Program-made: the position numbers and the translations under genes
Origin: Anaerolineales bacterium
GTDB taxonomy: Bacteria; Chloroflexota; Anaerolineae; Anaerolineales; UBA4823
Direction: 5' to 3'
Length of the DNA: 64,000 nt
NCBI GenBank assembly: GCA_016929095.1
Contig: JAFGJM010000033.1
Span: 114,482 to 178,481 of the forward strand
Notes under the pieces: generated by a model
What the model saw: the letters and a program-made list of their open reading frames with translations, nothing else
The model's database searches: none
What the model was told of the DNA's origin: nothing
Shown: positions 7,346 through 32,868 of the stretch, in pieces
Position numbering within the stretch: the stretch's first letter is position 1
Layout: the number at the start of each line of letters is the position of its first letter

Positions 7346-7406
7346 TCGTGCTAATCTATATTTATGCTCTCATGCCAGAGCATATTTTGTCAAGTAGGGG
7401 GAACAG

Positions 7407-8279: not shown

Positions 8280-8285
8280 ACCCCG

Positions 8286-8314
8286 ATTATAGAAAATCCC
8301 CCGCCGGATGTCAG
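8286..8314 (-). promoter_or_regulatory. Promoter giving a leaderless relaxase mRNA
   Basis: Minus strand reads CTGACA-17 bp-TATAAT-6 nt-ATG, with no Shine-Dalgarno. Confidence 0.6.
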
Positions 8315-8361
8315 CAGGGGAATTAGATGGGAGTTAGAGATGGATTATGCACGGATACGAT

Positions 8362-11300: not shown

Positions 11301-11721
11301 CCGTATTTCCATACTGAGTCAATTCTTCCCTGATAGCACGAGTAAACCAATCTTTCTCGCGTTGATCTAATACGGATTCTGCTGTTGGGATAACGCTCAG
11401 CTGTTCAAGAATTGCATTAATCTCATCACGCAATTCTGGAGTTTCTTCAACCGCATTTTCCAGACTCTTTGCTGTAGTTGCTTCATCGCCTAATTCTTTC
11501 AAGTGTTGAAGTTGATTAGCAAGAAGATTGGTACCGATGACTCCACCGAGTGTCACAAGAGCTGACCAATTGCCCGCCCTGGCAGCTTCCAAGATTGGTA
11601 TTAAGCTAACAGCGCTTAAGAAGTAATATATCGAATTTACTCCTGCATGCTGCATACGCTCTTTCCACCCCCATAACCTTTTATTTACTTCTTGCTTCCA
11701 TTGTGATAAGTTGAAGGCCAT
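8362..11721 (-). CDS. NACHT NTPase with C-terminal FGE-sulfatase (C-type-lectin-fold) domain; candidate defence protein
   Basis: 'VYVPL', Walker A GGPGSGKTT, Walker B LLLDGLDE, VVTCR, 'TPLLI', 'FIHLSFQEFLAG'; C-terminal 'LPSEAEWEKAARG', 'DMSGNIWEW', 'RVVRGGS', 'GFRV'. Confidence 0.9.
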   Translation of the reverse strand: MAFNLSQWKQEVNKRLWGWKERMQHAGVNSIYYFLSAVSLIPILEAARAGNWSALVTLGGVIGTNLLANQLQHLKELGDEATTAKSLENAVEETPELRDEINAILEQLSVIPTAESVLDQREKDWFTRAIREELTQYGNTDIQIAKIIGKGIIAQDSSSVKIKKKGTWIEEGAKDNILITERNNHIYYILNQFLKQSETIFDKRKLHYQIVDYLNWVRNRYGSIELRGIKREGHQVIQIDLEKVYVPLLGGSYEKKKEISFDQVLGEGNRLIITGGPGSGKTTVLQHIASTLANAILRGDDQLAFRKLGLDLDRIYEEDKRGIEDLKVSLRNLTDLQKSMLSEIDLNIFRLFEDGIDLKLTLKEVRQDYKKLGGKEKSLLKELKLNTTVLEVEKKLPLPIYVPLNAYADYLRSQKNISKARQKTLASFISFYLIEKQSSFNLPTDFFELLILDGQTVILLLDGLDEVANEQERVLVREAIETLIVGRGSMHAVVTCRTIAYKERTALPSNLFRELKVKPLSNDQIAALVSQAYNSLFPSDQIIAQQKANDLLHSIQKLESERRIRSGMEIEPLITTPLLIRLLLVVHYSDRHLPEQRAELYMKATDAMLLPEYNPDEAVSERIGQMVGGSLQIHRELAQFVAFSMHERGNEQGREISESGIRRLIAAKPEYKDKIEDLIVLTRTRGTLLEERLGSYRFIHLSFQEFLAGRYLAEIVRSQSGVEGIANFLENGTVLESWWREPTLLLVGYLSIVSPDAAELLLKRLVGLDENASERNIEQNIQVAAAEIAGSALLELVSVRNEFKKQFVQKLRQIFEKSVPITQVEPIFRTALGDTLARLGDTRFREDAWYLPDEPLLGFVIVPEGEFLMGTNEKDFSAYDYEKPQHKLNLKDYYIARNLVTVAQFRSFVQDTGYSKHDKAALNDSFSRPVRFVTWYDAMIYCKWLNEKLMRWNDTPIALHSLLKKGWHIKLPSEAEWEKAARGIDGRIFPWGGEPDPRRANFQDTGIRTTSTVGCFASGASPYGVQDMSGNIWEWTSSIWGKYRDRPDYKYPYNHTDGRENPKGGKYLLRVVRGGSYEDELLNIRCNCRHRVSPKLWDSYTGFRVVLASSTESVQAQPK

Positions 11722-12218
11722 TATTCCCGATATTACTCTCGATCATTAGGTGTTTAAGTAATTCATCCAAATTAGATAATAGGTTTTATTGATATTTCTA
11801 TAAGCGTAGTAATTATTATTCAACTTTCATAGATGGTCAGTCTGAAACAAGATTTCGTAATTAAAATTGAACCTAATCCAGAACTGATCGGTGGATATTC
11901 ACATAAATAAGTTTCATTATGGCTTCTCAACGATTAATTTTATCAAATAAGTATAATACGTTGTTTTTAAAAAGCCCAATAATATGCTAATTTGGGAATG
12001 GCATTGATGATGCAGTAAGGAATCGTTAACCTTGGATCGAAATGATTTTTACAAGTTTAATCTTGGCATTACAGCAGGCACCGAAATGATTAAATTATCG
12101 CAAGAAGGCAACAATAAGATCATTACAGGTAAAATAATGTTGTAGATTTTTACTACCATCACACGTTCACGATTGTTAAAAAAGGAGTTGGCTGCCTAAT
12201 GATAACTATCAGCGCTCG

Positions 12219-13700
12219 TCAGACTAATTTTTCGGCAGGATGCGATTCGTCATCATCAAATAAAAACTTCCAAAAAGATCGCTCAGCAATCTCCTCTTCT
12301 ACTTCTTTACGAGTTCGTGCAAGATGTCGCGAATTTTCGCGTATTTTGTCAGCTATTTCCTTATTCCAACTATCCATACCAAGATCTTCTGTAACAATCT
12401 TATGCTCAACCAGGCGAGGTAATTGATCTTTTTCTGATGGTATGTTGATCAAACGGGACCAGGCTTGGTAATTGGGAAGTATGGAAAGTTGGTTCGCCAT
12501 TTCAGCTTCAACATCGTTATACGGTCGTCGTGGAAGTTCTACTTCTTGATATAGCTTTCCTTCATCAGTTTTCAACTCAGTTTCAATCAGAAAATTCATT
12601 CCCTGGTATTCATAATCTCTATATACAGGTTCAACACGGGTGTCAGCTGATGGCGGGGTGTTGTCAAATTGGCTCGCTAATTCGTAGCTATCTCGAACGG
12701 TTACTCGAAAAACAACCAGATTCCCGACATTTAGAGTAGACCCCTTACTTAGAAGATCCAATTGATCACGGAACTGATGAGCGACGACTACATCTACGGC
12801 ATACTTGCGTGCTTCGCTTTGTAAGATGGAAAAACTTTCGGTTGCAAAATTCTGAAACTCATCTACAATCAGATGGAATGGACGGCGTTCTCCCTTTGGG
12901 ATTGACCGGCGTTGTAGTGCAGCGATCAGCATCAAGTTTACCAGGACCGAGCCCAGAAGCGAGGAGTTCACTTCACCCAGGTCACCTTTGGATAGGTTAA
13001 CAAATAAGATCTTGCCATGATCCATCAATTGTCGCAGATCAATTGTATTTTTCGACTGACCAACGATGTTGCGCATACTGATATCCGTCACAAATGGGCT
13101 GATCTTATTCAATGTAGAACTGGTTAGCTCATAGCGAAGCTTCTCACTCCTTGGGAAAGTCTCCCAGAATTGCTTCAGGATCGGGTCTTCAAGAACTTTT
13201 ACCAGTTTCTCGTGATGTTCTTTTTTGGAGTTTAGTAACTCTATCAGCTCTTTAAAAGTGGTGTCATCGTATTGCATGACTGTGAGGAGCGTATGCCTCA
13301 AAACATGTTCCAGTCTTGGCCCCCAGGAATGCGAGAACAAACGTCCCAAGGTGCCCATGACTGTCGAGACCACCCAACGTACCTGGAATGGATCCTTACG
13401 GTCACAAGACAACAGGTTCAATCCGAATGGTCTTTCGATGTCCATGGGATCAAATAAGATGACATCGTCCACTCTTTCTGGCGGCACTAAACCAAGCATG
13501 TCATCGATCAAATCTCCATGAGGATCGATGACGCAAAGTCCATGCTCCTTATCTTGATGCATATCCTGGTAGATCATGTTTTTCAACAGCGTAGATTTCC
13601 CAGTTCCGGTGGTGCCGATAATGTACGTACCCTGGCGGCGCTCATCTAAAGATAATTCTACATGTGATCCATCGTCAATACTTGTCCCTAACCTTAGCAT
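12219..13700 (-). CDS. VirD4/TraD-like coupling ATPase without transmembrane anchor
   Basis: GTTGTGKST Walker A, VIDPHGDL, LIVDEFQNF Walker B, 'SEARKY..AHQ..QL'; GGAGG before ATG 13700. Confidence 0.85.
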   Translation of the reverse strand: MLRLGTSIDDGSHVELSLDERRQGTYIIGTTGTGKSTLLKNMIYQDMHQDKEHGLCVIDPHGDLIDDMLGLVPPERVDDVILFDPMDIERPFGLNLLSCDRKDPFQVRWVVSTVMGTLGRLFSHSWGPRLEHVLRHTLLTVMQYDDTTFKELIELLNSKKEHHEKLVKVLEDPILKQFWETFPRSEKLRYELTSSTLNKISPFVTDISMRNIVGQSKNTIDLRQLMDHGKILFVNLSKGDLGEVNSSLLGSVLVNLMLIAALQRRSIPKGERRPFHLIVDEFQNFATESFSILQSEARKYAVDVVVAHQFRDQLDLLSKGSTLNVGNLVVFRVTVRDSYELASQFDNTPPSADTRVEPVYRDYEYQGMNFLIETELKTDEGKLYQEVELPRRPYNDVEAEMANQLSILPNYQAWSRLINIPSEKDQLPRLVEHKIVTEDLGMDSWNKEIADKIRENSRHLARTRKEVEEEIAERSFWKFLFDDDESHPAEKLV

Positions 13701-13862
13701 GTCAATCCTCCACGTCGGATATATAAGAATTATAGTCATAGATTGAAAATTGGGGAAATATTTAACAATTAAAAATGGAAATCTCGAGTAAACTTATTTT
13801 AAGTGGTGAGCCTTGTACCTTAATAACTACATTTAAGCTGCCCAAGGAGGAGGTGAATTATT

Positions 13863-14192
13863 ATGGGGGGAACAATACTAGCCGATATCCTGGATGAGCT
13901 TATTGGAATTGTGAAATCTATTCCTGAAGCTTTATGGAAGGATGCATTGTTTAACCAACGATCAAGGTCAATGCAAGATAAATTTAATCTTTGGATAAAA
14001 AGCAAAGATTCATTGAACATCAGCTTGACTGATCAACTTCAATATAAGACTGGAATAAATCAAAAATTATTCCAAGAAAATATTGAAATTAGAAATCTCC
14101 TTACCCAAAAGGATAAAGAGATTTCTCGCTTGAACCAAAAAATAAAATCAAGTGAATATAACTTACATAATAGACATAAAGCCTTTAGGTAA
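13863..14192 (+). CDS. Small protein with amphipathic N-terminal helix and C-terminal coiled coil
   Basis: Strong RBS AAGGAGGAGGTGA; 109-aa ORF. Confidence 0.65.
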   Translation: MGGTILADILDELIGIVKSIPEALWKDALFNQRSRSMQDKFNLWIKSKDSLNISLTDQLQYKTGINQKLFQENIEIRNLLTQKDKEISRLNQKIKSSEYNLHNRHKAFR

Positions 14193-14344
14193 GTAAAAAA
14201 TTAATCATAAGTAGAGTAGTGATAAGTGTTACAAGGCTCCCACTACTCCCATGACATTGTAGGGGTTTTCTATCGAAAAAACAACCTGGCATTTTAACCA
14301 CGACTAACTTTACTATTAAATAACCAAAAAATGGGAAAACCAAA

Positions 14345-15304
14345 ATGGATCTCAAACATATACGACATGCAAACTTAGCCAGTCTTCTTGGGTATTATCT
14401 GGATGGATGGGCGGATTTAATTGAGGGAATGGGTGATAAAGCAGAGGAAGTGGAGAATGCCGTTTTTGATCAGCTCATTCAGCAAAATATGCCAGATGTC
14501 AATGTAACTAAAGTGAGTATGCGAGAAGGATTTTTATCTGGGGAATATCGAGACTATATCAAAACTACTACTTCACCAGGTGCCACCACAACGATATATT
14601 TTTCAAAACACGGAAAAAATTTATATGCTTCCTGGCGTTCTTTTATTTTAGTGATCCCAAATTTAAAGTTGTTACTGATTTATTTACTCATGTCGATCGT
14701 CATAACCATTATTGTGGGATTAATTATTACTGAATCAATCATATTTAAAATCCACCATTTAATCATAAATTCTGTGAATTGGGAAATTTTCAAAGATGCC
14801 ATTGGCAGGTGGGCATTATTTGCGATTCTCGTATTCGGATGTGAATTACTTGTTCTAGTTGTAGCAGGGAGAGTCATTCGTAGACATGAACGCGCTTTTC
14901 TGGCGAAAGGAATTATTATTATCGCTTCGATATTTGCGATTATCATCCCACTTTTTGTAGAAAATATTGGAAAAGAAATAGGGCAGGGTATCAGCTATAT
15001 CTTTAAAACTTATTGGACAGGATTTGGTTTATTGTTGTTTAAACTGATCAATATTCCGCTTTATGCTTTATGGACCATAACAATAATTTTGGTTTTAGCT
15101 GCAATCTTGGGTTTGATTATCAGAAGAAATATCTTCGCTTTCTTTTTGAAGGAGCCTAGTCTATTTGACGCGGAAGATATTTCGGCTATGAATATTTCAG
15201 TCCATAAGGTTATTTTACGTGCGTTAGATTCCCAGGGAATCGATATAACAAAATTACGTATAAAGCGGGATTTTAAAGGTGGGCGACGAGAAGAAAACGT
15301 TTGA
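14345..15304 (+). CDS. Multi-pass membrane protein of unknown function
   Basis: Four hydrophobic segments arranged as two similar pairs (…AGRVIRRHERAFL / …LGLIIRRNIFAFFL). Confidence 0.75.
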   Translation: MDLKHIRHANLASLLGYYLDGWADLIEGMGDKAEEVENAVFDQLIQQNMPDVNVTKVSMREGFLSGEYRDYIKTTTSPGATTTIYFSKHGKNLYASWRSFILVIPNLKLLLIYLLMSIVITIIVGLIITESIIFKIHHLIINSVNWEIFKDAIGRWALFAILVFGCELLVLVVAGRVIRRHERAFLAKGIIIIASIFAIIIPLFVENIGKEIGQGISYIFKTYWTGFGLLLFKLINIPLYALWTITIILVLAAILGLIIRRNIFAFFLKEPSLFDAEDISAMNISVHKVILRALDSQGIDITKLRIKRDFKGGRREENV

Positions 15305-15309
15305 TAAGT

Positions 15310-16251
15310 TTATAAAAGAATATGCGCTAAGTCTCTGATTGCAGATTTGAAATCACAACTTTTCCATTTCATCCAAAAATCTATGATGCTGCCTCCCCCA
15401 CATTCGGCAAAACAGCACCAGTAATTCTCATCTAAATTCACCGCAAAACTTTCATGTTGATCATCATGAAAAGGGCACAAGCCTCGTCCGGTAGGGGAGA
15501 TGTCCACATAGCGGCATACAAAATCATATACGGTAATACTGTCCTTGATACGGCTTGAAAGTGACTCACTGGACTCCTGTATTGGTATAGGAACCGGTTT
15601 CTGATCGAAAGATAGTGGATCATGCATTATCTTTCGAAACGCCCTTTCTGTGACCATACAAGGGTTGGTAAGGATATTAATTTGATCTTCAGTTTTATTG
15701 GCTAAAGCCTTACCATCGGGAGTGATAAAGCCGTATCGCTCACCTGTTTTGCGATGGATACCAAAAGGTAAACGAACTAGAGAACCCGGGCCGGTCTTCA
15801 GTTCGTTTTGTTTGGGAAATAATTCAAGGGTGGAGAAATCAAATTGTTTCAATAAGCGCTTGCCAAACGAGCGAGCTGTTTTGCCTGGGATGGATTTCCA
15901 AAAGAAAATCCACAAATGTCCACCCCGGCGGCTGGTTTCAAGGTAGGAGGGAATATCACGTTGAGATAAGGTGGTGGACATTTGGATCAGACGATCCCAT
16001 GTGGGTTGATCGTCTGCATCGAAAACTATAAACCTTGCCTCACTTTGTTCATTCAGCACATAACACCCCAAAGTGATCTCACCTTTTAGGTGAGAGAGGA
16101 TGTGTGACATGGTTAGGGTTTTCTTAATACAGACATAGCTTCCATCATTCAACTGCAGGGGATACAAATCCCACCGTTGAATAAAGGTGTTTGTCAAAGA
16201 CCTGACACAATTTTCAAGCTCGATTGAATTTAAGAGAACTTCTTTTTGCAT
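15310..16251 (-). CDS. Archaeo-eukaryotic primase domain fused to a CHC2 zinc finger
   Basis: AEP motifs 'FIVFDAD', 'ETSRRGGHLW', 'ELFPKQ', 'VRLPFG'; C-terminal 'CPFHDD...WCCFAECGGGSIIDF'; GGAGG RBS. Confidence 0.85.
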   Translation of the reverse strand: MQKEVLLNSIELENCVRSLTNTFIQRWDLYPLQLNDGSYVCIKKTLTMSHILSHLKGEITLGCYVLNEQSEARFIVFDADDQPTWDRLIQMSTTLSQRDIPSYLETSRRGGHLWIFFWKSIPGKTARSFGKRLLKQFDFSTLELFPKQNELKTGPGSLVRLPFGIHRKTGERYGFITPDGKALANKTEDQINILTNPCMVTERAFRKIMHDPLSFDQKPVPIPIQESSESLSSRIKDSITVYDFVCRYVDISPTGRGLCPFHDDQHESFAVNLDENYWCCFAECGGGSIIDFWMKWKSCDFKSAIRDLAHILL

Positions 16252-17639: not shown

Positions 17640-18380
17640 ATGCCGCATGCACTGTCAGAACGGCAAAAAGAATACCTTAATTTCATTCGGGAATACATCC
17701 GCGCAAACGAGATGTCTCCAGGGCTTGATGAAATTGCCCGGCATTTCGACGTAAAGTCGCCGACTGCTCATAAGATTCTGGAAGCATTGCAGGCAAAAGG
17801 TTTTATCTATTTTGTTCGATCCAGTGAGGCTGGTTTTTATATTCGCTTGGTCGAACGAGCTGGAATGCATGAAGTGGTGATGCCTGTCCCGATTTTTGGG
17901 AAAGTGGATTACCTTGGGGAAATTCAAAACTTTCCAGAATATTTCGGTGGATTCGATGATTTCTTCTTCGGTGGAAAACCAAATACAATCTTTGCGGTAG
18001 TATTAACCAAAGATATCCCAATCGCCAATATGAAAGCTGGGGACACCATAGTCTTCGACCAAAGTAAAAAGCCACAACCCGGTGATATTTGCATCCTGCC
18101 GATCGGACAGAGGTTATTTTTGGCGAAGATAGCCAGCAAAACGATGGATAGAGAAGTTCATTCAGTGGAAACATCTATCAAATACCCAATCCCCGTGGAT
18201 TTATGTAATCCTAATGTTGAGCAATTGTTGAACTATTATCCCTTGGCGTTTGATGAGAATACGGAAGAGATATTGTTCGCTATCGCCGAAGATCAAGACT
18301 GGCCGCTTGTGCCTTTACCAACCAGCTTCGCAGTAGCTACTGCTCTGCACCTTTGGCGAAAGTTCGAAGTGGGCGGATAA
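17640..18380 (+). CDS. LexA-like repressor, degenerate S24 domain (paralog 1)
   Basis: LexA wHTH 'LSERQKEYLNFI...SPGLDEIARHF.VKSPTAHKILEAL..KGFI'; no Ala-Gly site and no GDSM serine. Confidence 0.8.
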   Translation: MPHALSERQKEYLNFIREYIRANEMSPGLDEIARHFDVKSPTAHKILEALQAKGFIYFVRSSEAGFYIRLVERAGMHEVVMPVPIFGKVDYLGEIQNFPEYFGGFDDFFFGGKPNTIFAVVLTKDIPIANMKAGDTIVFDQSKKPQPGDICILPIGQRLFLAKIASKTMDREVHSVETSIKYPIPVDLCNPNVEQLLNYYPLAFDENTEEILFAIAEDQDWPLVPLPTSFAVATALHLWRKFEVGG

Positions 18381-18383
18381 ACG

Positions 18384-19031
18384 ATGACTCGAAGATCAGA
18401 TCTACGAAGCGAATATCTAAAGTTCATACGCAAATACATAGATGACAATCATTGTGCACCACGATTGGAAGAGATAGCCCAGTATTTCAATGTAACCAAA
18501 CCGACGGCTCATAAAATGCTAAGTTCTTTGATGAAGGAAGGACAACTGGTTTTTAATCGAGATGATTATTCCGGGTTCTACATACGACAAATTGAAAAGG
18601 TTGGAACTACAGCATATTTAACTGAAATTGTTATCGCGGGTGGGATCGATAGATTTGGTCGTCTGCACGAATTTCCAAAAAAACATGGGCATTTCCCGCT
18701 TGTATTACCTGGATACGATCCGGATAAATTGTTTGCATTACAGGCTTGGCAACACATTCCACAGGCGGATATTCTGTCTAATGATTTGTTGATTTTTTAT
18801 CAGGAATTGGAACCGCGGATTGGTGGGATTTGCATTATTCCAGTTGACGATGACTGGCTGATAGTTCGCCTAGTTAAGCAGGATGAAAACAGGCTGTTTT
18901 TTTGGTCTCCGGTTGTTAATAGTGAAGGTGAAAAGGATACTTGTAGGAGTTTGGGGGTAACGCAAGAGCCAATCACAAAAGAATTTGTATTGGCGAATGC
19001 CATTGCTTTAAAACGTACTTTATCGATCTGA
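18384..19031 (+). CDS. LexA-like repressor, degenerate S24 domain (paralog 2)
   Basis: 'YLKFIRKYI...APRLEEIAQYF.VTKPTAHKML'; S24-like pattern without catalytic Ser/Lys. Confidence 0.78.
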   Translation: MTRRSDLRSEYLKFIRKYIDDNHCAPRLEEIAQYFNVTKPTAHKMLSSLMKEGQLVFNRDDYSGFYIRQIEKVGTTAYLTEIVIAGGIDRFGRLHEFPKKHGHFPLVLPGYDPDKLFALQAWQHIPQADILSNDLLIFYQELEPRIGGICIIPVDDDWLIVRLVKQDENRLFFWSPVVNSEGEKDTCRSLGVTQEPITKEFVLANAIALKRTLSI

Positions 19032-19142: not shown

Positions 19143-19364
19143 ATGATAATGAATGTAAATGTTTCTGAAGAGCCATCGCAAGAACATATTGTTTCCATTG
19201 ATGAAGTCAATCGAATATTAGAAGTGGGTCGTTTGTTGTTATCCACACTTTCTCAGGAAGAGAAGAATCACCTTGAGCGGACTGTGAACAATACTCCACT
19301 TCAAGAATGGGTCGAGAATCCCATCTTGTCTGAAACTAGAATAGGTAACACCAGCGTCACTTGA
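19143..19364 (+). CDS. Small protein upstream of the recombinase (possible directionality factor)
   Basis: 73-aa ORF immediately before the recombinase; function inferred from position only. Confidence 0.45.
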   Translation: MIMNVNVSEEPSQEHIVSIDEVNRILEVGRLLLSTLSQEEKNHLERTVNNTPLQEWVENPILSETRIGNTSVT

Positions 19365-21049
19365 CGCGCGGAAGAAATATTTATAGGATTCATAATCATC
19401 AATTATTGGAGAAGGATTTGGCAGACCGAATTAACTCACCTGGTTGGGCAACTTATCTTCGAGTGAGTGATGAAGACAAACAGACTCCCGAGCGTTCTTT
19501 TGCCATGCAAAGGCAGCGAATTCAGGAGCATTTACTCACTTCATCGAATATCCCATTTAAGCGTGAGTATACGGATATGTTGACAGGGACATCTCCCAAC
19601 CGTACTGAATATCAACAAATGCTGGTGGATGCTGAATCTGGAATGTTTTCCCATTTGGGTTTATATCGGGCAGATCGTTTTGGGCGCAATACGGTTGAGG
19701 GATTGCAGTCTGCCACTCGACTGATCGGGTTAGGAATCAAGATCCGGGTGGCGCATATGCCTAGTCTGCGTCCAGAAGAACCGGATGGATTCTTCATGTT
19801 CTTGATCCAAATGGGTCTGGCACAACGTGAGGTTGATGTTCTAAAACAACGTACGGCTGATGGAATGGCAGCCAAAATGAGAGCAGGGGGATGGCCTCAA
19901 CGAGCACCGGATGGTTACGTCAATAAAGAGCGATTGGTAAGCAGCAATAAATATGAGCGCTGGATAGAAATAGACCCTGAATATAGTCAAGTAATCCGTT
20001 ATGCCTGGGATTTATTATTGACTGGCCGATACACCATGATCCAGATTTGTGAAGAATTAGCAAATATGGGATATTCTCGAAGAGGAGGTTCCCCCTGGGT
20101 TTGGGAAGATACTCAAACTGGAAAAAAGAAGCATGCGGATAATCGCTTGCATCGTATCTTTCATAATCCATTTTATGCTGGTTGGGCAGTATCGGAAAGA
20201 TTTGGGATAAAAAAAGGTGAAGTTCGGGGACAATGGGAGCCGATCATCACACCAGATGAATTTGAAAAAGGGAATGCAATTCTTCGTCAACATGATGACC
20301 AGAAATCAAGAAACAAAAAGCAATTCTACCTTCTCAGAGGGCTGGTTTCGGTAGAGGAAAATAACAAGCGTTATAAGATGTATGTATCCACACCCAGTGG
20401 ATGTCGGCAAAGCTATTCTTATTACATAACTCATACCGAAATCAATGGAAAAAGACTCCATATTCCCAGTGGCATAGTCGATGAGCAAATTGACCAGTGG
20501 GTAAATCTAATACAGGTTGATCCGACTAAGATACCTGCTATTCGCAAATTGTACCAATTCGAGATTAAAAACGTGACACATGATAATCGAGAGGAAACAA
20601 TAGACGGATTAAAACGTCAATTGACGAGATTGAAAGATGAAGAAGGGAGGTTGGGACGATTACTAATTACAAATAAAATTAGTGAAACGACCTACGACCA
20701 ACTGCGTAAAGAATGGCAAGAGAAAATCCAGCGTATGGAAATAAACATAGCTGATCTTGAGCGCGAAACACTTGTTCGTGTGGATGATTTGGATGTTGCC
20801 CTAGTATTGATGGGAAATATAAGTCTTTTGTATCAAAGACTAAAAGGGAAAAACCGGGCAACGCTCTTGCAGATTTTAGTAAAGCAGTTTATAGTTGACG
20901 TGCAAGGAAAAATAATCAATTGTGAATTGAATTCCCCGTTTACATACTTGAAGATCCTTGCGAATGAAATTAACCCTAATACCCACGAGTCATGTAGTTC
21001 GACTCAGGTCTTCGTAGGGGCACCAAAAACCGCTCAACGATTGTGTTGA
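19361..21049 (+). CDS. Large serine recombinase (integrase); start may be TTG 19418
   Basis: 'YLRVS...Q', 'DRFGRN', 'RAPDGY', recombinase domain 'IFHNPFYAG...WEPII', 'YLLRGL', coiled coil; GGAGAAGG precedes TTG 19418. Confidence 0.93.
   Translation: MTRGRNIYRIHNHQLLEKDLADRINSPGWATYLRVSDEDKQTPERSFAMQRQRIQEHLLTSSNIPFKREYTDMLTGTSPNRTEYQQMLVDAESGMFSHLGLYRADRFGRNTVEGLQSATRLIGLGIKIRVAHMPSLRPEEPDGFFMFLIQMGLAQREVDVLKQRTADGMAAKMRAGGWPQRAPDGYVNKERLVSSNKYERWIEIDPEYSQVIRYAWDLLLTGRYTMIQICEELANMGYSRRGGSPWVWEDTQTGKKKHADNRLHRIFHNPFYAGWAVSERFGIKKGEVRGQWEPIITPDEFEKGNAILRQHDDQKSRNKKQFYLLRGLVSVEENNKRYKMYVSTPSGCRQSYSYYITHTEINGKRLHIPSGIVDEQIDQWVNLIQVDPTKIPAIRKLYQFEIKNVTHDNREETIDGLKRQLTRLKDEEGRLGRLLITNKISETTYDQLRKEWQEKIQRMEINIADLERETLVRVDDLDVALVLMGNISLLYQRLKGKNRATLLQILVKQFIVDVQGKIINCELNSPFTYLKILANEINPNTHESCSSTQVFVGAPKTAQRLC
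20997..21025 (+). other. Putative attR: displaced tRNA 3' end plus T-loop-like motif
   Basis: GTTCGACTC at 20997-21005 and GGGGCACCA at 21017-21025, immediately followed by a terminator. Confidence 0.65.
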
Positions 21050-21063
21050 GCGGTTTATTTTTA
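21027..21063. terminator. Bidirectional intrinsic terminator
   Basis: AAACCGCTCAAC-gattgt-GTTGAGCGGTTT followed by a T-run. Confidence 0.8.
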
Positions 21064-21119
21064 GGTATCCGCATCATTGTGTGTTCGAGAAACCTGCTCC
21101 CACAGGTTTCTTGAATCTC

Positions 21120-22541
21120 CTATACATCGAAATATAAACTCATTTCGTATGGATGCGGGCGGTTACGCACCGGGTAATATTCTTTATTGCGCTTGTAGTC
21201 TATCCACTGTGCGATCAGAAGTTCGCTGAACACATCCCCTGCCAGCAAGAATTCATGGTCATTCTCCAGCGCCACCAGCGCCTCGTCTAACGTGGCAGGT
21301 AGACTCTTGACCGCAGCCCGCTGTTCGTCCGTCCAGGAAAAAATATTAGCATCAATGGGCCCAAACCCGGCTTCGGTGGGATCGATCTTGCGCTGAATAC
21401 CATCCATGCCAGCCAATAGCATAGCCGCCAGGGCTAAATAAACATTACAGGTGGCATCCGGAGTGCGGAATTCCATACGTGCTGTATCGGGTTGGGTGGC
21501 ATATTTAGGGACTCTTACCGCCGCAGAGCGATTCCCCAGAGAGAAGAAGGCATTTACCGGCGCTTCGAAACCTGGAACTAATCGGCTGTACGAATTGGTG
21601 CTCGGGTTGGTTAATGCCAACAATGCCGGGCTGTGTTTGAGTAAACCACCAATATAATAAAGAGCAGTCTGACTCAGACAACCGTAACCTTTCGAATCAT
21701 AGAATACATTCACGCCATCTTTAAATAGATGCTGGTGGAAATGCATCCCACTGCCAGCCTCCCCGTACAACGGTTTGGGCATGAAAGTCACTGTTTTACC
21801 GCTTTGGTGCGCCACCATTTTTGTCACATACTTAATGATCATTGTGGCGTCACCCGCTTGAACCAACCCCATCATGGGTGTCTCGATCTCCGATTGTCCG
21901 GGTCCGCCTACTTCGTGATGGTGATACTTGACCGGTACACCCATTTCTTGTAAGCGCAGGCACATCTCGCTGCGTAGATTGAAAAATTGGTCCTTGGGCG
22001 GGATAGCATGATAGCCTCCATGAAGGGGGATGTAGTGTCCGTGACCTCCTTCAGCGCTGTTCCAATCAGCTTCCGTACAGTCAACCCGATAGCTGGCGCG
22101 GTTTACCCCATATTCGTAGGAGACGCTGTCGAAAATATAAAACTCGAATTCTGGACCCCAGCGAGAATCGGTGGCAATATTGCTCTTGCGAAGATGCTCC
22201 TCTGCACGAATGGCAATGTTACGCGGGTCATTTGGGAAGATATCATGCGTGTCAGCTTCCAGTGTGGCGCAGATGAAGCTGAGGGTCTCTGCCTGCCAAA
22301 AGGGGTCGCGCATCGCGGTAGCTAACTCGGGCACCAGCACCATGTCGCCGGCTTTCACACTTTTCAACCCCACTGCAGAACCGTCAAACCCAATGCCGTT
22401 TTCCATTAAATCGAGTGAAAATTGATTTGCCGGAACACTTAAGTGGTGCCAACGCCCATATAGATCGCAGAACTTAAGATCTACGATCTGAATATTTTGC
22501 TCTTTGATATAATGCTGAGCCTGTTCAAATTTTGAAAACAT
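21120..22541 (-). CDS. glnA: Glutamine synthetase type I
   Basis: FDGSA, GPEFEF, HHHEV, TFMPKP, GSGMHFH, NRSAAVRVP, EFRTPD; GGAGG before ATG 22541. Confidence 0.92.
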   Translation of the reverse strand: MFSKFEQAQHYIKEQNIQIVDLKFCDLYGRWHHLSVPANQFSLDLMENGIGFDGSAVGLKSVKAGDMVLVPELATAMRDPFWQAETLSFICATLEADTHDIFPNDPRNIAIRAEEHLRKSNIATDSRWGPEFEFYIFDSVSYEYGVNRASYRVDCTEADWNSAEGGHGHYIPLHGGYHAIPPKDQFFNLRSEMCLRLQEMGVPVKYHHHEVGGPGQSEIETPMMGLVQAGDATMIIKYVTKMVAHQSGKTVTFMPKPLYGEAGSGMHFHQHLFKDGVNVFYDSKGYGCLSQTALYYIGGLLKHSPALLALTNPSTNSYSRLVPGFEAPVNAFFSLGNRSAAVRVPKYATQPDTARMEFRTPDATCNVYLALAAMLLAGMDGIQRKIDPTEAGFGPIDANIFSWTDEQRAAVKSLPATLDEALVALENDHEFLLAGDVFSELLIAQWIDYKRNKEYYPVRNRPHPYEMSLYFDV

Positions 22542-22635
22542 ACCAGGTCCTCCCATCATATTTTTTGATATCAATTTTTCTCAAGGTTGGGGTTGCTGCA
22601 AAGCCGGATGATGTATTAAGAGTATACATTGGTTT

Positions 22636-24450
22636 TTAATGTTTTAGATAATGCCTGAACCAATTCACAATAGCCTCATTGGTTTTGACCCTGGTTGAAA
22701 CCTGTTTAAATTGATGACCTTCGTTTGGAAAGATATACTGATTAAAAGTGACGTTTTTTTTATAAAGCATGCGCGATAATTGGTCTGGTTCACTCAACGG
22801 CACATTGCGATCATTCTCCCCATGCAAGATAAGCAGAGGCGCCTCGATCTTTTGAGCCCAATGAATGGGAGATAACTTGCGTAACATTTGCCGGTCTGTT
22901 TTAGGGTCGCCATATTTCAGTTTTGAGATGGCGGCTATCCAGGGTTCGGTGTAGGTGAAAAATGTCTCAAAATTCACGAATCCTGAGATCGTCACCCCCG
23001 CGTTAAATAATTGTGGGTAAAGAGCCAGACCGGAAACCGTGAGATATCCGCCATAGGAAGCCCCCATAATTCCCAGGCATTGCGGATTTGTATAGCCCTC
23101 CTTGCAGATAAACTCTGCACTGGATTGGATGTCTCTTAGAGTGTTCAGGCGATTTATCCCATTATCCCAGTTCATGAATACTTTTCCATACCCGGAAGAG
23201 CCGCGGATGTTAGGAGCCATGACGGCAATTCCGGCGCATAAAAGCGCCTGATAAGTGCTATTAAAGGCGGGAAGTTCTTGTGCTTCAGGCCCTCCATGAA
23301 AACACAGCACAAGAGGACCCGGGGGTGAAAAGGTACGAGGGATGTATAACCACCCACTCAATTCGTACCCATCATGCGATGAATAGGTGACAAGTTCTGG
23401 CTGGATCAGTGATTGCAGCCTGATTCCAGCGTGAGGACTGGCACTAATGGGGGATATTTGCTCGTTATCCAATGCCAAGAGGTAAATATTTTCGGGCAAG
23501 TTTGATCCGGTAGCAGCGATGACCACATGTTTTCCATCAGGTGAAATCTTAATCTGCGTAATAATATCTGCGGGCGTTGGCAGGTGTTTTGGTTCTTGCC
23601 TGCCCTCCAGGGAAACCCATTCCAATTCGCTGCGCCCGTTAACATTCCACATCATCACCACCGAGTGTTTGTCGGTATGAACATCGAATGTTTGCAGGTC
23701 TGCATCTTCTCTCTCATAAAGGATTTCCAACTGATTCAAGTCGATATCGGTAGCTAATGGCAAGCGGGCAAAGGCGGTTCGATCTCGTCCAAGGTTAGTA
23801 GCCAGTAAAATATTCTTGCCATCTGGAGAAAAACGTGCCTGTGGAAATTGTGCAATATCTTGATGAGGAATTAGCTGATGCTCCCTGCCATGTATCAAAT
23901 CGAGCAATAAGAGTTCTTCATCACATCGATTTAAGCGGCGAACCAACAATGCTAAACCACTGGCTTGATGAAAGTCGGCGAACAATCCATCGCCGACGTC
24001 GTGGGTGATGAGTTGGGGGTGATCGCTTGAGATGTCGTACTGGTACAGGTCCATTTTTTCGGGTGAACGGCGGTTTGAGAAGTAAGTGAGCGTTTTTCCA
24101 TCTGAAAGCCAGTTTGCTAAAAAGTTAATCTCATTACCACCATTTGTCAGACAACGCAGATCGCTCCCATCCGGACGAACGATAAAGATTTGTTCATTCA
24201 TTCCGCCGGCCGGGGCAACGCCGAAAGCCAGCCATTCTCCTGCCGGAGACCAAACTACTTTAGAAACCGGGTCATCCAGTACAGTGATTGGGGTTGGCCA
24301 TCCACCGCATACAGGGACTCGCCACACTTGAGGGAGACCGCTCAGATCGGAAAGGAATGCCAATTGCGTGCCATCCGGAGAAAAGACCGGCGCCCAACAA
24401 GCACCTGCTTTAGCAAGGAGTGTGGTTTGGGTGGGAAGCGAGTAGACCAT
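22636..24450 (-). CDS. S9-family (prolyl oligopeptidase/acylaminoacyl) peptidase
   Basis: Beta-propeller N-terminus; HGGPE, GASYGG, HGENDRNV, EGH catalytic motifs. Confidence 0.9.
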   Translation of the reverse strand: MVYSLPTQTTLLAKAGACWAPVFSPDGTQLAFLSDLSGLPQVWRVPVCGGWPTPITVLDDPVSKVVWSPAGEWLAFGVAPAGGMNEQIFIVRPDGSDLRCLTNGGNEINFLANWLSDGKTLTYFSNRRSPEKMDLYQYDISSDHPQLITHDVGDGLFADFHQASGLALLVRRLNRCDEELLLLDLIHGREHQLIPHQDIAQFPQARFSPDGKNILLATNLGRDRTAFARLPLATDIDLNQLEILYEREDADLQTFDVHTDKHSVVMMWNVNGRSELEWVSLEGRQEPKHLPTPADIITQIKISPDGKHVVIAATGSNLPENIYLLALDNEQISPISASPHAGIRLQSLIQPELVTYSSHDGYELSGWLYIPRTFSPPGPLVLCFHGGPEAQELPAFNSTYQALLCAGIAVMAPNIRGSSGYGKVFMNWDNGINRLNTLRDIQSSAEFICKEGYTNPQCLGIMGASYGGYLTVSGLALYPQLFNAGVTISGFVNFETFFTYTEPWIAAISKLKYGDPKTDRQMLRKLSPIHWAQKIEAPLLILHGENDRNVPLSEPDQLSRMLYKKNVTFNQYIFPNEGHQFKQVSTRVKTNEAIVNWFRHYLKH

Positions 24451-24454
24451 GATT

Positions 24455-25384
24455 TCAAGAAGACCTGGTTTTTGAAAAAATTTGTTGAAAGTGAGGGTCC
24501 AAAGCATTCCTCAACCCGTCCCCCACAAAGTTGAATCCCATCACAGTGAGCATGATTGCCAGCCCAGGGAAGATTCCCAACCAGGGTGCAGACTGGATGA
24601 ATCCCCGGCTTTCTTTTAGCATCCTACCCCAACTTGGGTCTGGAATTTGGGTGCCCAGTCCTAAGAAACTCAAAGCGGCTTCGTTCAATATCGCAAAGGC
24701 GAGACTTAAGGATGCCTCTACAATAATTGGCGCAGATACGTTGGGCAAGAGATGGGAAAAAATAATCCACCCGTCACTTGCCCCCAAAGCACGGCTGGCT
24801 TCTACGTATGTTGTCTGACGAACGGTTAATGCGCTGCCGCGTGTGATACGAGCGAAGATTGGAGTATAAACAACCCCAATTGCTATCATCGCATTTTCGA
24901 CCCCCTCACCTAAAATTGCCAGGATTGCTATTGCCAGCAGGATAGCCGGAAAGGCAAATAGGATGTCCATGAGACGCATTATGATTTCATCTATCAAACC
25001 GCCGTAATAGCCACTCAAAACACCCAATAAAGTTCCGGCGACCATGGAGATGCCTACGGCGATCAATCCAACTTTCAAGGAAACTTGAGCGCCATAGATA
25101 ATCCGGCTTAACACATCCCGGCCGAATTCGTCTGTTCCCAGGAGATGGTTCGAGTCTGGCGTTGATAGACGATTGGCCATATCCAAAGCATTTGGGTCAT
25201 AGGGCGCCAGATATGGCCCTGCAACTGCCATCACCAGCAATAATATCAAGATCAGTAAACCAATGCGCGCTAAGCGGTTTCCCAAGAGACGACGCAGGAT
25301 CAGCAACCAACCGTGTGTGGGTTGGTTTATTTCTTGAGGTTTTTCTTCCAGAATTAGATCCGTTGACGTAAGATTTGTCATCAA
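24455..25384 (-). CDS. Peptide/nickel ABC permease (DppC/OppC-like)
   Basis: 'LGTDEFGRD', 'YVEASRALGAS', 'EAALSFLGLG'. Confidence 0.92.
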   Translation of the reverse strand: MMTNLTSTDLILEEKPQEINQPTHGWLLILRRLLGNRLARIGLLILILLLVMAVAGPYLAPYDPNALDMANRLSTPDSNHLLGTDEFGRDVLSRIIYGAQVSLKVGLIAVGISMVAGTLLGVLSGYYGGLIDEIIMRLMDILFAFPAILLAIAILAILGEGVENAMIAIGVVYTPIFARITRGSALTVRQTTYVEASRALGASDGWIIFSHLLPNVSAPIIVEASLSLAFAILNEAALSFLGLGTQIPDPSWGRMLKESRGFIQSAPWLGIFPGLAIMLTVMGFNFVGDGLRNALDPHFQQIFSKTRSS

Positions 25385-25396
25385 ATTAACCTTCTG

Positions 25397-26344
25397 TCAC
25401 TCGGAGTACTTAATACGCGGATCTAGAAACGTGTATAAAATATCCACGAATAAATTTATCAAGGTGAAAGTGAAAGCCACCAATAATACTGCCCCCTGCA
25501 CCATCGGGTAATCTCTGCGGGTCACACTATCCAAGGTTAACCTGCCAAGCCCAGGCCAGGCAAAAATGATTTCAACCACAATAACACCGCTAAGTAATGA
25601 TGCCAACTGCATACCCACCGCTGTCACAATGGGGATGGCTGCATTCCGCAGAACATGCCGAAGGATTACACGGCGTTCTCGCATACCTTTTGCGCGGGCT
25701 GCACGTACATAATCTTCGTGTAAGACTTCAATCACTGCTGAACGGATGAAGCGGGTCAAGATCGAGGCTGTGATCACGCCCACCGTTAACGAAGGCAATA
25801 TCAGATGTTTCAACCACATGAGTGGCTCGGTGGATAAGTCAGTATATCCGGAAGGAGGTAACCAACCCAAAAATAAAGAAAAAACCAGAATAAGCATGAT
25901 TCCCATCCAAAAATCAGGGATGGACATACCTATCTGGCTGAAAAGAGCGGCGGCATAATCCCATGCTCGCCCGGGATAAAGGGCAGAAATAATTCCGGTT
26001 GGCAGGGCTATTACCAGGGCAATGAGCAATGAAGCGACTGCAAGTGTCATTGTGGCAGGTAATCGCTGCAATACTGCCTGGGTAACTTTTTCTCCGGTAA
26101 GAATGCTGAAGCCTAAATCTCCCTGCAAGGCAGACCAAAGCCATTTACCAAACTGAACCAGCAAAGGACGGTCGTATCCCAATTGGCGGCGAATCAATTC
26201 CACTTTTTCTTGATCTGCTTGTAAGCCCAGCATGATACGAACCGGGTCGCCTGGCACCATATGGATGATCATAAACACGACGAATGCAATGCCAAATAAG
26301 ACCAGAAGAGTTGTCAGTAGGCGTTTTAATAGATAAGCGGGCAT
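25397..26344 (-). CDS. Peptide/nickel ABC permease (DppB/OppB-like)
   Basis: 'PGDPV', 'DYVRAARAKG', 'FAWPGLG', 'RDYP'. Confidence 0.92.
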   Translation of the reverse strand: MPAYLLKRLLTTLLVLFGIAFVVFMIIHMVPGDPVRIMLGLQADQEKVELIRRQLGYDRPLLVQFGKWLWSALQGDLGFSILTGEKVTQAVLQRLPATMTLAVASLLIALVIALPTGIISALYPGRAWDYAAALFSQIGMSIPDFWMGIMLILVFSLFLGWLPPSGYTDLSTEPLMWLKHLILPSLTVGVITASILTRFIRSAVIEVLHEDYVRAARAKGMRERRVILRHVLRNAAIPIVTAVGMQLASLLSGVIVVEIIFAWPGLGRLTLDSVTRRDYPMVQGAVLLVAFTFTLINLFVDILYTFLDPRIKYSE

Positions 26345-26358
26345 AGAAACCTGCAGGT

Positions 26359-26392
26359 GGAAGGGGAAGCCATCCCTTCTGCTTCCCCTTCC
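26359..26392 (-). terminator. Intercistronic hairpin after the substrate-binding protein gene (mRNA stabiliser/attenuator)
   Basis: GGAAGGGGAAGC / GCTTCCCCTTCC 12-bp stem. Confidence 0.6.
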
Positions 26393-26402
26393 CGATGGTT
26401 AA

Positions 26403-28028
26403 TTAACGATCAAGCCAGGTGCTATCAAAGTTGATGGCATTATCACTGCGGGTAAAGTAACCCCGCACGTAAGGCTGCCAGGCATTGACATTAGCCGGAT
26501 TATACAGGAACACATAAGGGGCGTCATCAATCACGATCTTCGACACTTCGGAGTAGATGTCCATACGAGTAGCGACGTCTGTTTCAACCCGTCCTTTTTC
26601 CAATAACTCATCCAGGGTCGGATTGCTGTAGCCGGTAAAGTTGAACACCTCACCCGTGTGGTGTACAGAATAATAAAATTCATCGGGATCCATGTTTCCG
26701 ATCCAGCCCATGATATACATATCGTAATTGCCCTTACCTTCATCCTCCAGCCAGGCGCCCCATTCCAGTGTACGGATTTCGGCATTGATCCCAATCTGCG
26801 CCAGTTGTGCCTGTAGGACTTGAGCGGCGCGTACAGTCTCTTCGTAAAAATTGGTGACCATAAATTCAGTCTTGAAGCCATCCGGATACCCTGCTTCAGC
26901 CAATAACTGGCGGGCTTTTTCCAAATCCTGGGTATATGGCTGGTAATCTGAATACCAGGAACTGGTATTTGGTATTGGTCCCTGGTTGGCGGTAGCTGTA
27001 TCCCATTTCGCACCCATCGCGACCTCAGCCCGGTTAATGGCATAGGCAATGGCCTGACGGACTTTTACATCATCGAAAGGCTTGCGATTGAGATTTAGCC
27101 CAATATACCAGTAGTCATTGCCGGATACTTTATCTACAATCACTTCACCAGATGTAGCCAGCTCGGTAACCTGTTGTGGAGGCAGGGTTCCAGCCCAGTC
27201 CACTTCGCCGGTTAAAAGGTTGGTCAATAAGACCGTCTCTTCAGGAATAATCTTGAAGGTAACGCCATCCAAATAGGGCTTGCCTTCTTCCCAATAATCC
27301 GAATTGGCCTCCAGTACCACACGGTCGCCGGGAACATACTCAACGAATTTAAACGGTCCGGTGCCAATGGGAGTGGTGTTCACAGTGCCATCGTCAACGA
27401 TTTCTTTTGGGACGATGGACATCCCTTTATACCCGCCAATCATATTCAGCAAGTTCGGGCTGGGCGATGCGACGCGGATGACGACGGTCAGCGCATCAGG
27501 CGCATCGATGCTTTCGACTGCGCTAAAACGCCAGGAAGCGCCAGATCCTGTATCTGGGTTCATAATGCGTTGGTAGCTATAGACCACATCATCGGCGGTG
27601 AGTTCGCGGCCGTTATGGAATTTAATACCTTCTTGAAGGTGGAAGGTCCAGGTCAGGTTATCCTCCGAAATTTCCCAGCCCGTTGCCAGCGAAGGAACCA
27701 TATTCAAATTTTCATCCACAGTTACCAGGGTATCATACACATTTTCAAGCACCTGGAAACTGGAATATGCCGAAGTTATGTGAGGGTCAAACCCTTGTGG
27801 ATCGGCGGATATGGCGGCATTCAATATCCCGCCGCGTTTGATACCCGATGGATCAGCCGTCGGCGTGACCAGTTTCTCAACCTCCACCTCTTGGGTTACA
27901 ACAGTTTGCACTTCCTTTGTGACCACAACAGTTTCTTTCAGGGTACTTTGCTGTGGGCTGCATGCGGTTATGATGAGTGTAACCAGCACAAGCAATACTA
28001 CAGTTTTGATCAAGCGTTGATTATGCAT
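26403..28028 (-). CDS. Peptide ABC substrate-binding lipoprotein (SBP family 5)
   Basis: ITAC lipobox; 'VYDTLV', 'LATGWE', 'PIGTGPFKF', 'VRQAIAYAINR'. Confidence 0.92.
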   Translation of the reverse strand: MHNQRLIKTVVLLVLVTLIITACSPQQSTLKETVVVTKEVQTVVTQEVEVEKLVTPTADPSGIKRGGILNAAISADPQGFDPHITSAYSSFQVLENVYDTLVTVDENLNMVPSLATGWEISEDNLTWTFHLQEGIKFHNGRELTADDVVYSYQRIMNPDTGSGASWRFSAVESIDAPDALTVVIRVASPSPNLLNMIGGYKGMSIVPKEIVDDGTVNTTPIGTGPFKFVEYVPGDRVVLEANSDYWEEGKPYLDGVTFKIIPEETVLLTNLLTGEVDWAGTLPPQQVTELATSGEVIVDKVSGNDYWYIGLNLNRKPFDDVKVRQAIAYAINRAEVAMGAKWDTATANQGPIPNTSSWYSDYQPYTQDLEKARQLLAEAGYPDGFKTEFMVTNFYEETVRAAQVLQAQLAQIGINAEIRTLEWGAWLEDEGKGNYDMYIMGWIGNMDPDEFYYSVHHTGEVFNFTGYSNPTLDELLEKGRVETDVATRMDIYSEVSKIVIDDAPYVFLYNPANVNAWQPYVRGYFTRSDNAINFDSTWLDR

Positions 28029-28236
28029 CCTTTCCTCTCCTTTATAAGTCGATATGAAATCAAAGTCCTGCCTTTTAGTTCACAATAACATACCCCCGCC
28101 AATAGAACGCCAAGAGAGTGTTAAAAGAATTATTGGTATTAACATTACACTATGTGTATTTCGCTTGATAAAAAACTGCCAAATAACATGATGACGAAAG
28201 CATGATTTTTGATTTACTAAGGTGGCCAAGGTATGA

Positions 28237-31290: not shown

Positions 31291-31317
31291 TTCTCACTAC
31301 TCACTGTTCACCCCACA

Positions 31318-32631: not shown

Positions 32632-32868
32632 GAATATCTCCTGTGCAGATAAATAATTATTTTTCGAAAAATCGTTTTCAGTGTTGCCAGCTTAATATTG
32701 ATATGATTGCGATGAGATTTGTTCCACGTAATTTCGCGGCAGAATATACATAAATAAGGATCGTTTACAAGAATGATATATTATAATCTTCGAAAAAAGG
32801 GATTCGGGTAATATTCATTGAACCATTTCTTGACAATCCTGGTATTTGTATAAAGGACAGGGTTCATA

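Follow-up and report, generated by a model that had tools for sequence, protein, structure and literature searches.

The integrase gene at the right end of a putative island

The window, i.e., the whole stretch of DNA analysed here, comprises 64,000 nucleotides of an Anaerolineales genome (G000:C47:114482-178481, where G000 is the source assembly). On its + strand it carries a gene for a large serine integrase (LSI; 19361-21049), and a putative attR, the right-hand recombination site of an integrated element, lies across the 3' end of this gene (20991-21045). The gene ends at an intrinsic terminator (21027-21062, + strand), which faces the host-flank gene glnA on the other strand (21120-22574, - strand; Pfam Gln-synt_C, E 8.4e-112). 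As developed below, the LSI very probably marks the right end of a 59,579-bp, defence-loaded element that is inserted in the 3' end of a tRNA-Glu(UUC) gene, with ~20991-21045 as attR.

In its integrated, tail-less form the integrase has 562 amino acid residues when read from a TTG start, and its open reading frame (ORF) ends in ...VFVGAPKTAQRLC*; the database copy (P0002) has 543 residues, which places its start 19 codons further downstream. Pfam assigns residues 30-178 to the Resolvase domain (PF00239, E 6.4e-20) and residues 206-309 to the Recombinase domain (PF07508, E 4e-10), which corresponds to the first DNA-binding domain (DBD1). The catalytic region YLRVSDEDKQ is invariant in the integrase alignment, with R34, S36 and D37 unchanged across 57 aligned sequences. 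A database search yielded 434 homologs; the best 120 of these, which were examined further, share 57-100% identity with the integrase, and the few named ones are Anaerolineae or Chloroflexi recombinases. The family has a single occurrence in the source genome.

A fold search was needed because a sequence search of the PDB reached the catalytic domain only (best E 9e-5). An AlphaFold2 model was made of P0006, a natural full-length homolog that is 72% identical to the integrase, with 49 aligned sequences (mean predicted local distance difference test score, pLDDT, 84.3; predicted template modelling score, pTM, 0.45). In this model, a helix at residues 121-154 is followed by a mixed domain, as expected for DBD1 after the long alpha-E helix, and long helices at 368-416 and 422-465 are inserted into a beta-rich domain. 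Foldseek matches the model to the full-length integrases of SPbeta (9dxd, E 3.7e-17), phiC31 (9rah) and Bxb1 (9iu2) and to LI integrase (4kis, E 2e-10); the alignments with these LSIs span 540-600 columns and include the second DNA-binding domain (DBD2), and the identity of the integrase to solved LSIs is 12-16%. The Pfam domains and the full-length Foldseek matches therefore identify the protein as an LSI.

The attR site and the element boundaries

The P half-site of attR, which comes from the element and lies within the integrase ORF, extends to 21020, and the B' half-site, which comes from the host, starts at 21021. The P arm contains GTTCGACTC (20997-21005, first T at 20998), which begins with the distal DBD2-type motif GTTCG (20997-21001, + strand; -24 to -20), read in the ORF through the codons Ser-Ser-Thr. 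At 21017-21025 follows GGGGCACCA, of which the 8-bp core GGGGCACC (21017-21024) is identical to the 3' end of tRNA-Glu, i.e., the 3' strand of the acceptor stem, the discriminator A and CC. From 20998 to 21025 there are 28 nt, whereas T54 to A76 of a tRNA comprise 23 nt. Further downstream lies a terminator-like hairpin (21027-21056; 13 pairs, 6 of them G-C) with ATTTTT directly after it. An earlier note on this DNA had drawn attention to the T-loop mimic, its 28-nt spacing and the terminator, all of which are present as it described them. The stretch itself is not a tRNA gene: ARAGORN finds 0 genes in the window and Rfam has no tRNA match in 20800-21250, the tRNA-Glu gene described next, which served as control, scoring 56.8 bits.

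The earlier note also expected a + strand tRNA ending in GGGGCACC(A) to the left of the window, and ARAGORN, which finds 36 tRNAs in the whole assembly, places such a gene at G000:C47:75852-75926. It is on the + strand, ends in ...GGGGGCACC and encodes tRNA-Glu(UUC), not the tRNA-Leu or tRNA-Arg that had been proposed as the target, although related integrases do use Arg and Lys genes. This tRNA gene lies 59.6 kb upstream, outside the window, and ends in the core, marking attL. The two core copies are 59,579 bp apart, which is the size of the element; its right 21 kb occupies window positions 1-21020, and the remaining 38.6 kb is G000:C47:75923-114481. Because the core is common to both element ends, the crossover is placed inside it. 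G+C content is 0.34-0.48 to the left of 21000 and 0.45-0.53 to the right. Both signs of tRNA targeting are present, namely an intact tRNA-Glu gene at attL and an 8-bp repeat of its 3' end at attR. To judge from this sequence organization, a 60-kb mobile island sits in the tRNA-Glu gene of an uncultured Anaerolineae-type bacterium.

The reconstructed attP and the 5-bp register

The attP site was reconstructed by joining two arms, namely P, the DNA to the left of the core copy at the integrase, and P', the DNA to the right of the core copy at the tRNA. The joined arms form an imperfect dyad that matches at 19 of 27 positions (18 of 25), centred between 21020 and 21021, i.e., between GGGG and CACC; the next-best centre in the symmetry scan reaches 11. 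The scores of attL, attR and the reconstructed attB are at best 9-14, the high values being those of terminator hairpins, and none of 200,000 random chimeras made from the same contig attains 18/25 (maximum 17, five times).

The motif GTTCG starts at -24 in P, at -24 in P' (next to the tRNA and read on the reverse strand) and at -19 in the T-loop of the tRNA (GTTCGA), and this -24/-24/-19 geometry recurs in all five element/tRNA pairs available (see below). The shifted T-loop mimic that had been predicted for the P arm is thus found there and, beyond that prediction, in the P' arm as well. In LSI sites, the motifs bound by DBD2 are 5 bp, or half a helical turn, nearer to the centre in attB than in attP (PMC11722253). 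As GTTCG starts at -19 in the host site and at -24 in the element site, the former has attB geometry and the latter attP geometry, and the half-sites, as read from these sequences, agree with the Van Duyne/Rice model of LSIs. The 28-nt instead of 23-nt spacing thus reflects a motif in P-type register, of which the host's own copy is in B-type register. The proposal that this shift is one of a zinc-ribbon motif was right for the offset, which is -24 versus -19 in five of five pairs, but the domain concerned would be a cysteine-less DBD2. We infer that DBD2 would read the distal motif and that the crossover would occur at the central G|C.

Related elements and their target tRNA genes

Loci of the integrase family numbered 46 in species-representative genomes, 32 of them in Chloroflexota relatives, and a metagenome scan gave 80 additional loci. 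Four further elements have both ends on one contig: L041 (3,545 bp) and G042 (45,523 bp), both in tRNA-Arg(CCG), G041 (34,086 bp) in tRNA-Glu(UUC), and G044 (7,000 bp) in tRNA-Arg(CCU). In all four, P joined to P' is the best dyad (14-17/25), with its centre within the shared core. The opposite orientation is seen at five loci, where a whole tRNA gene (in L034, a tRNA 3' fragment) adjoins the integrase 3' end in antisense; at four of the five, the span from GTTCG to the CGAAC of the tRNA is 24+19 = 43 nt. Both orientation classes occur in the integrase family, but they belong to different lineages and differ in their cores. Not all distant relatives share the geometry, since L050, with a 38%-identical integrase beside tRNA-Arg(UCU), has no GTTCG at -24.

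Related enzymes target the genes for tRNA-Glu(UUC), Glu(CUC), Arg(CCG), Arg(CCU) and Lys(UUU), and across these integrases the distal motif is constant and the core varies. Positions +1 to +3 are Y-R-Y in all 38 correctly centred direct-class junctions, as expected of tRNA positions 72-74. Integrase 3' ends were collected from 112 loci, 56 of which were readable: 45 are without the C-terminal tail described in the next section, 5 have it in frame and 6 are cut off by the contig end. The pattern used for this tally missed L039, whose tail is in frame, the automatic procedure misplaced the centre in 4 of the 45, and some loci are near-duplicates.

Some loci show more complex arrangements. In L038 (2830-3100), the P-arm sequence with the peptide GSVHIREGAYAAPGGAA occurs twice, ~90 nt apart, after one integrase gene, which may represent tandem sites or stacked elements. 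In L028 (4712-5075, - strand), a tail fragment and a small helix-turn-helix (HTH) gene are encoded on the other strand, 2.5 kb downstream of the attR of an integrase, with no tRNA called, and may belong to a second element facing the first. Many integrase loci are located at or near contig ends (L023, L024, L028, L031, L032, L033, L038 and others), suggesting that assemblies break at att/tRNA sites or at multi-copy elements. One metagenome-assembled genome has four integrase copies (L025, L026, L034 and L044), and so has another (L031, L033, L038 and L046).

The reading frame across the crossover

At attR, the integrase frame passes through Gly-Ala-Pro, which comes from the shared core, and ends with seven host-encoded residues and a stop (K-T-A-Q-R-L-C-stop; 21025-21049, + strand), which derive from the former tRNA-Glu trailer and terminator. 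The terminator, formerly that of tRNA-Glu, would now end the integrase gene. At attL, the same phase gives Gly-Ala-Pro followed by 40 residues that include VEEFLESLRFDKRDKLSELP, and in five of five pairs the integrase frame runs on into such a tail in the DNA that follows the tRNA. With the crossover inside the ORF, a tailed integrase would be encoded by the circular form. The claim that the last ~10 residues and the stop are host-derived therefore holds for the last seven and the stop, with Gly-Ala-Pro belonging to the shared core, and the C-terminus predicted to differ in the excised circle consists of 40 residues, in frame at attL and including a conserved motif.

Of the best 120 of 434 homologs, 23 end in this tail motif, FLxxLRFxxRxKLxEL, in frame, and the motif is conserved among homologs that are 56-76% identical to one another. 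A profile built from these 23 tails has one strong match in the source genome, directly after tRNA-Glu (E 2.6e-11; next match, E 1.9). In four other genomes it has nine matches with E <= 10, six of which have E < 0.1, and five of these six are directly 3' of a same-strand tRNA gene (Glu-UUC, Glu-CUC, Arg-CCG and, twice, Arg-CCU). The sixth, L075 (G041:C7:428608-428676, - strand), consists of a P' arm and a tail with no tRNA to its left, and it is located 19.6 kb downstream of the attR of another integrase (L051) in the same orientation; its target may be something other than a tRNA gene, or the elements may be nested or in tandem.

The stop codon of the tail overlaps (ATGA) the start of a gene of ~88 codons, which is conserved in six other loci. 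Its product matches HTH_17 below threshold (20.5 and 24.7 bits; cut-off 27). From this gene order, the HTH-like gene would be co-transcribed with the integrase in the circle and stand behind the tRNA in the island.

In the P0006 model, residues 521-545, encoded by the stretch around the core, are disordered (pLDDT < 50), and two short helices make up the tail (pLDDT 73-83). When the integrase body (residues 1-555) was co-folded with the 36-residue tail, using alignments made for the purpose, the scores were 0.49, 0.49 and 0.45, the best of three controls scoring 0.00; at least 95% of contacts agreed between runs and the partner pLDDT was at least 64. The pass mark applied is reached by 116 of 157 solved complexes and 2 of 215 mismatches, and scores up to 0.60 comprise 18 of the 157 complexes and both passing mismatches; a pass in this range is wrong oftener than right unless the guess was likely beforehand. 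The modelling thus lends weak support to docking of the tail on the integrase body.

The 23 homologs with an in-frame tail were considered as excised circles, and this was rejected, as their readable DNA is without a canonical P' arm or GTTCG; on their sequences, all they would indicate is that the protein has long had the tail as a conserved part. In some of them, the right CGAAC-like motif is nearer to the core than in the split elements, by ~11-12 bp in L053 (3246-3300) and by ~5-6 bp in L119 (1775-1835) and at the 3' end of L037. A role of the tail as a built-in directionality factor was rejected on logic, because the tail belongs to the circle form, the wrong state for a factor that promotes excision.

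The empty site and observations that weigh against the assignment

Several observations weigh against the assignment of the att sites and of the integrase. At the protein level, the Pfam model Zn_ribbon_recom has no match in the integrase, and CxxC pairs are absent from its sequence and from the family consensus, so that DBD2 is a safer label than zinc ribbon. The weakness of the predicted tail docking counts on the same side. At the DNA level, the B' arm, which consists of the tRNA trailer and terminator, resembles the other half-sites only near the centre. In addition, characterised LSI sites are described as having a non-palindromic central dinucleotide, which sets their polarity. At the dyad centre, the present pairs have GT in L041, AC in G042 and the palindrome GC in the other three (G000, G041 and G044; at window 21020|21021, in L070/L035 and in L073/L030), unlike expectation for LSI sites; if cleavage falls at this palindromic centre, the overlap could not fix orientation. 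Further, no contiguous attP of the split type was seen: among homologs with an in-frame tail, L039, L053, L119 and L132 are without a canonical P' arm, and the GTTCG motif is absent from L042 and L052. The one public sequencing run containing the locus, probably its source, has a contig spanning attR and no attB or attP joint. That run also shows no loose end at 21020, the locus is in no RNA run listed, and the two RNA runs of the same study contributed nothing to it, which is uninformative on excision and expression.

The empty site, predicted as a tRNA-terminator-glnA arrangement, was sought in relatives. Seven relatives of other genera have glnA (68-73% DNA identity) with no tRNA within 1.5 kb; in five of these seven, extended to 11-20 kb, the only tRNA is tRNA-Pro, more than 10 kb away, in two. 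Four left-flank proteins searched for in these relatives gave no match. Because synteny is not conserved, these relatives are uninformative on the empty site either way. Two genomes of the same genus, G001 and G002, both have the left flank with tRNA-Glu(UUC). In G002, a hairpin terminator stands directly 3' of tRNA-Glu(UUC) and shares 11 nt (AAAACCGCTCA) and the stem with window 21027-21056; on this sequence comparison, the adjacency of tRNA and terminator is that expected of attB. In G001, the trailer after tRNA-Glu differs and runs into a dispersed repeat, and is uninformative. In both genomes, the gene after tRNA-Glu is a homolog of window ORF 36356-39958 (69% amino acid and 72% nucleotide identity), and glnA was not found in either. 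The predicted empty site is thus borne out for tRNA and terminator in G002, but not for glnA as the next gene, and it rests on that adjacency, since the next gene differs and glnA was not found.

Compared with the tRNA-Glu loci of these relatives (L079 and L082), the window has a second indel, of 15 kb (21120-36356), which contains glnA and genes for an S9 peptidase, an Opp-type transporter, a BTAD-TPR regulator and an M20 peptidase; this glnA-to-M20 block could be an older island or a species difference. The repeat in G001 (L082:29-160), of ~110 bp, has dozens of copies with 70-97% identity on many contigs of G000, including one at C47:168520-168598 (window ~54039-54117), and from its sequence it looks like a miniature inverted-repeat transposable element or a repetitive extragenic palindrome.

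Proposed mechanism and alternative explanations

In the proposed mechanism, attP would be the imperfect ~50-bp dyad inside the integrase ORF, with GTTCG 24 bp from the centre in both arms, and the host site would comprise the T-loop GTTCGA of the tRNA, 19 bp from the centre, and the last bases of the acceptor stem. Recombination in the 8-bp core would keep the tRNA whole at attL, with only the encoded A76 being lost, and would put the tRNA trailer and terminator behind the integrase body at attR. In the circle, the integrase would have a ~25-residue disordered linker and the FLxxLRFxxRxKLxEL motif, followed by the translationally coupled small HTH gene. In the island, the same catalytic and DNA-binding body would carry seven host-derived residues in place of the tail.

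By analogy with Mx8 IntP, the two forms might differ in activity, the tail reporting the integration state; we hold this to be possible, if somewhat short of probable. The more comprehensive idea that the family anchors on the tRNA T-loop via DBD2, picks its tRNA by the crossover bases and uses its own gene as an integration-state switch appears rather doubtful as a whole. If true, the tailed circle enzyme, co-transcribed with the small HTH protein, would integrate, the tail-less island enzyme would differ in directionality or activity, and no separate directionality factor would be needed. The family would then offer a ready-made, retargetable system for integration at tRNA sites and a new control of LSI direction. 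The integration-dependent control and the broad-host integration tool suggested in the earlier note are likewise hypothetical.

Alternatively, the att assignment may be right and the overlap of ORF and att site a matter of compaction, the two forms being alike or the tail serving stability or partner binding in the circle. This is a serious candidate, albeit one to which we would not give the better chance. All recognised LSI domains are upstream of the crossover, the region around the core is predicted to be disordered and hence free to evolve as a DNA site, LSIs are unidirectional without help according to published abstracts, and the docking score of the tail is low (0.45-0.49). Mere compaction would not readily account for the conservation of the tail motif across homologs that are 56-76% identical to one another, or for the frame being kept across the crossover in five of five split elements; moreover, the Mx8 integrase that is shortened by integration is less active, as far as the source passage describes it (PMC4701971).

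A permanently locked island is improbable. The truncated integrase would then be inactive, as with the 'suicidal' SSV-type enzymes, and exit would need a full-length copy supplied from elsewhere. SSV-type integrases do split their own gene on integration, according to the passages that treat them (PMC8371274), and 45 of 56 readable loci are truncated, with 5 having the tail in frame. What is lost here, however, is ~40 C-terminal residues past DBD2, and the catalytic and recombinase parts and the predicted DBD2 and coiled coil are intact in an open frame. Also, the 45 truncated loci have varied cores and downstream sequences and the paired elements are in several tRNA genes, which implies ongoing mobility.

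An explanation by chance or by a leftover is extremely unlikely and close to refuted. In this view, GGGGCACCA would be either a tRNA 3' fragment displaced in a classical tyrosine-integrase insertion or an 8-mer that matches by coincidence, and the serine recombinase would act at another place or be a resolvase or invertase. The 8-bp repeat alone is indeed weak, with 53 occurrences of GGGGCACC on both strands of the 3.9-Mb genome, and no tRNA-like fold is found at the site. On the other side, no tyrosine integrase is present on the 212-kb contig (the four matches in the genome lie elsewhere), none of the 200,000 random chimeras equals the P/P' dyad, the architecture recurs at four inverted junctions and in four other elements, the frame runs on into the tail at attL, and the protein has full LSI length and fold.

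Comparison with known systems

Like the LSIs of LI/A118, phiC31, Bxb1 and SPbeta, the present integrase has a catalytic domain, a recombinase domain and, by its modelled fold, a putative DBD2 with an embedded coiled coil, and as in solved LSIs the attP is an imperfect dyad of ~50 bp whose distal motif is 5 bp nearer to the centre in attB. Unlike these, with which it shares 12-16% identity, it has no zinc-binding cysteines, its attB is a tRNA 3' end with the universal T-loop as distal motif, its attP is inside the integrase ORF, and three of five pairs have a palindrome as their predicted central dinucleotide.

In streptococcal integrative and conjugative elements (ICEs) inserted in rumA, attR falls inside the gene for the serine integrase, and the integrase of the excised element differs in length and C-terminus, as here (Ambroset et al., 2016; PMC4701971). 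These ICEs insert in a protein gene, as opposed to a tRNA gene here, and the passages describing them, on which this comparison is based, contain no conserved tail motif, T-loop mimic or 5-bp analysis. For Mx8 IntP, the same source describes an attP within int and an integration that swaps 112 residues for 13 and lowers activity (PMC4701971); this enzyme is a tyrosine recombinase with a different mechanism, whereas ~40 residues outside known domains are exchanged here. SSV-type integrases resemble the present one in having the recombination site inside the integrase ORF, a tRNA target and a gene that is partitioned on integration, and in the passage available self-disrupting recombinases are called exclusively archaeal (PMC8371274). 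These are archaeal tyrosine recombinases split into two non-functional parts, in contrast to a serine recombinase with all domains in one frame, and that statement, as worded there, leaves C-terminal swaps as here or in the rumA ICEs uncovered.

Integration of serine recombinases into tRNA genes is described as rare, the examples given being actinomycete ICEs (AICEs) of Mycobacterium in tRNA-Leu and phage phiRSM1 in tRNA-Ser (Ghinet et al., 2011; PMC3218068). These likewise combine a serine recombinase with a tRNA gene as attB; they are, by their descriptions, from another host phylum and recombinase lineage, the phiRSM1 enzyme being small and resolvase-like, and neither half-site geometry nor int/att overlap is treated in the passages describing them. 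In the literature searched, i.e., titles and the openings of abstracts with few subscription journals, nothing was found on the T-loop as a distal LSI motif, on a 5-bp-shifted attP mimic or on the present Anaerolineae integrase family. A serine integrase, a tRNA target and an attP inside int are known but rare features that are combined here; what is new is the clean mechanistic reading and the conserved gene-spanning tail.

LSIs are the main tools for insertion of large DNA, and the discrimination between attP and attB is an active structural question. In the integrase family, nature supplies a clear example of the 5-bp register rule, because one of the half-sites consists of the T-loop and acceptor end of a tRNA, whose geometry is known and fixed. 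Its varied tRNA targets with a constant distal motif provide a natural data set on retargeting of the inner half-site, and the gene-spanning attP adds a bacterial serine recombinase to the few integrases with an integration-state-dependent product.

Cargo and conserved modules of the element

The integrase-end module that is conserved consists of a LexA-type winged-helix protein, a 73-residue ORF and the integrase. In the window, two proteins with LexA-DNA-binding-type winged helices (246 and 215 residues; Pfam) are encoded at 17640-19031 on the + strand, and such proteins are beside the integrase in many loci. The 73-residue ORF (19143-19364, + strand) overlaps the start of the integrase gene with its end. 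In relatives it likewise precedes the integrase, with tblastn matches in 51 of 118 loci (E <= 1e-4); it has no Pfam match and belongs to no known family.

Further to the left, the window encodes a ParA-like protein (6397-7197; Pfam), a Replic_Relax protein (7407-8279; Pfam), a NACHT-FGE(-sulfatase-domain) protein of 1119 residues with no PADLOC match (8362-11721), a TrwB/FtsK-like ATPase (12219-13739) and an archaeo-eukaryotic primase (AEP) of the AEP primase-CHC2 type (15310-16251). The left part of the element encodes a ParM-like ATPase, DUF2958 and AddAB-like and UvrD-like helicase-nucleases. Between the tRNA and the integrase are the defence systems BREX (PglX, BrxC, BrxD and BrxHI), Gabija (GajA and GajB) and ZacABC, and the element thereby shows movement of such defence cargo in Anaerolineae. 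The stacked defence genes span G000:C47:80353-114481 and window positions 1-16251.

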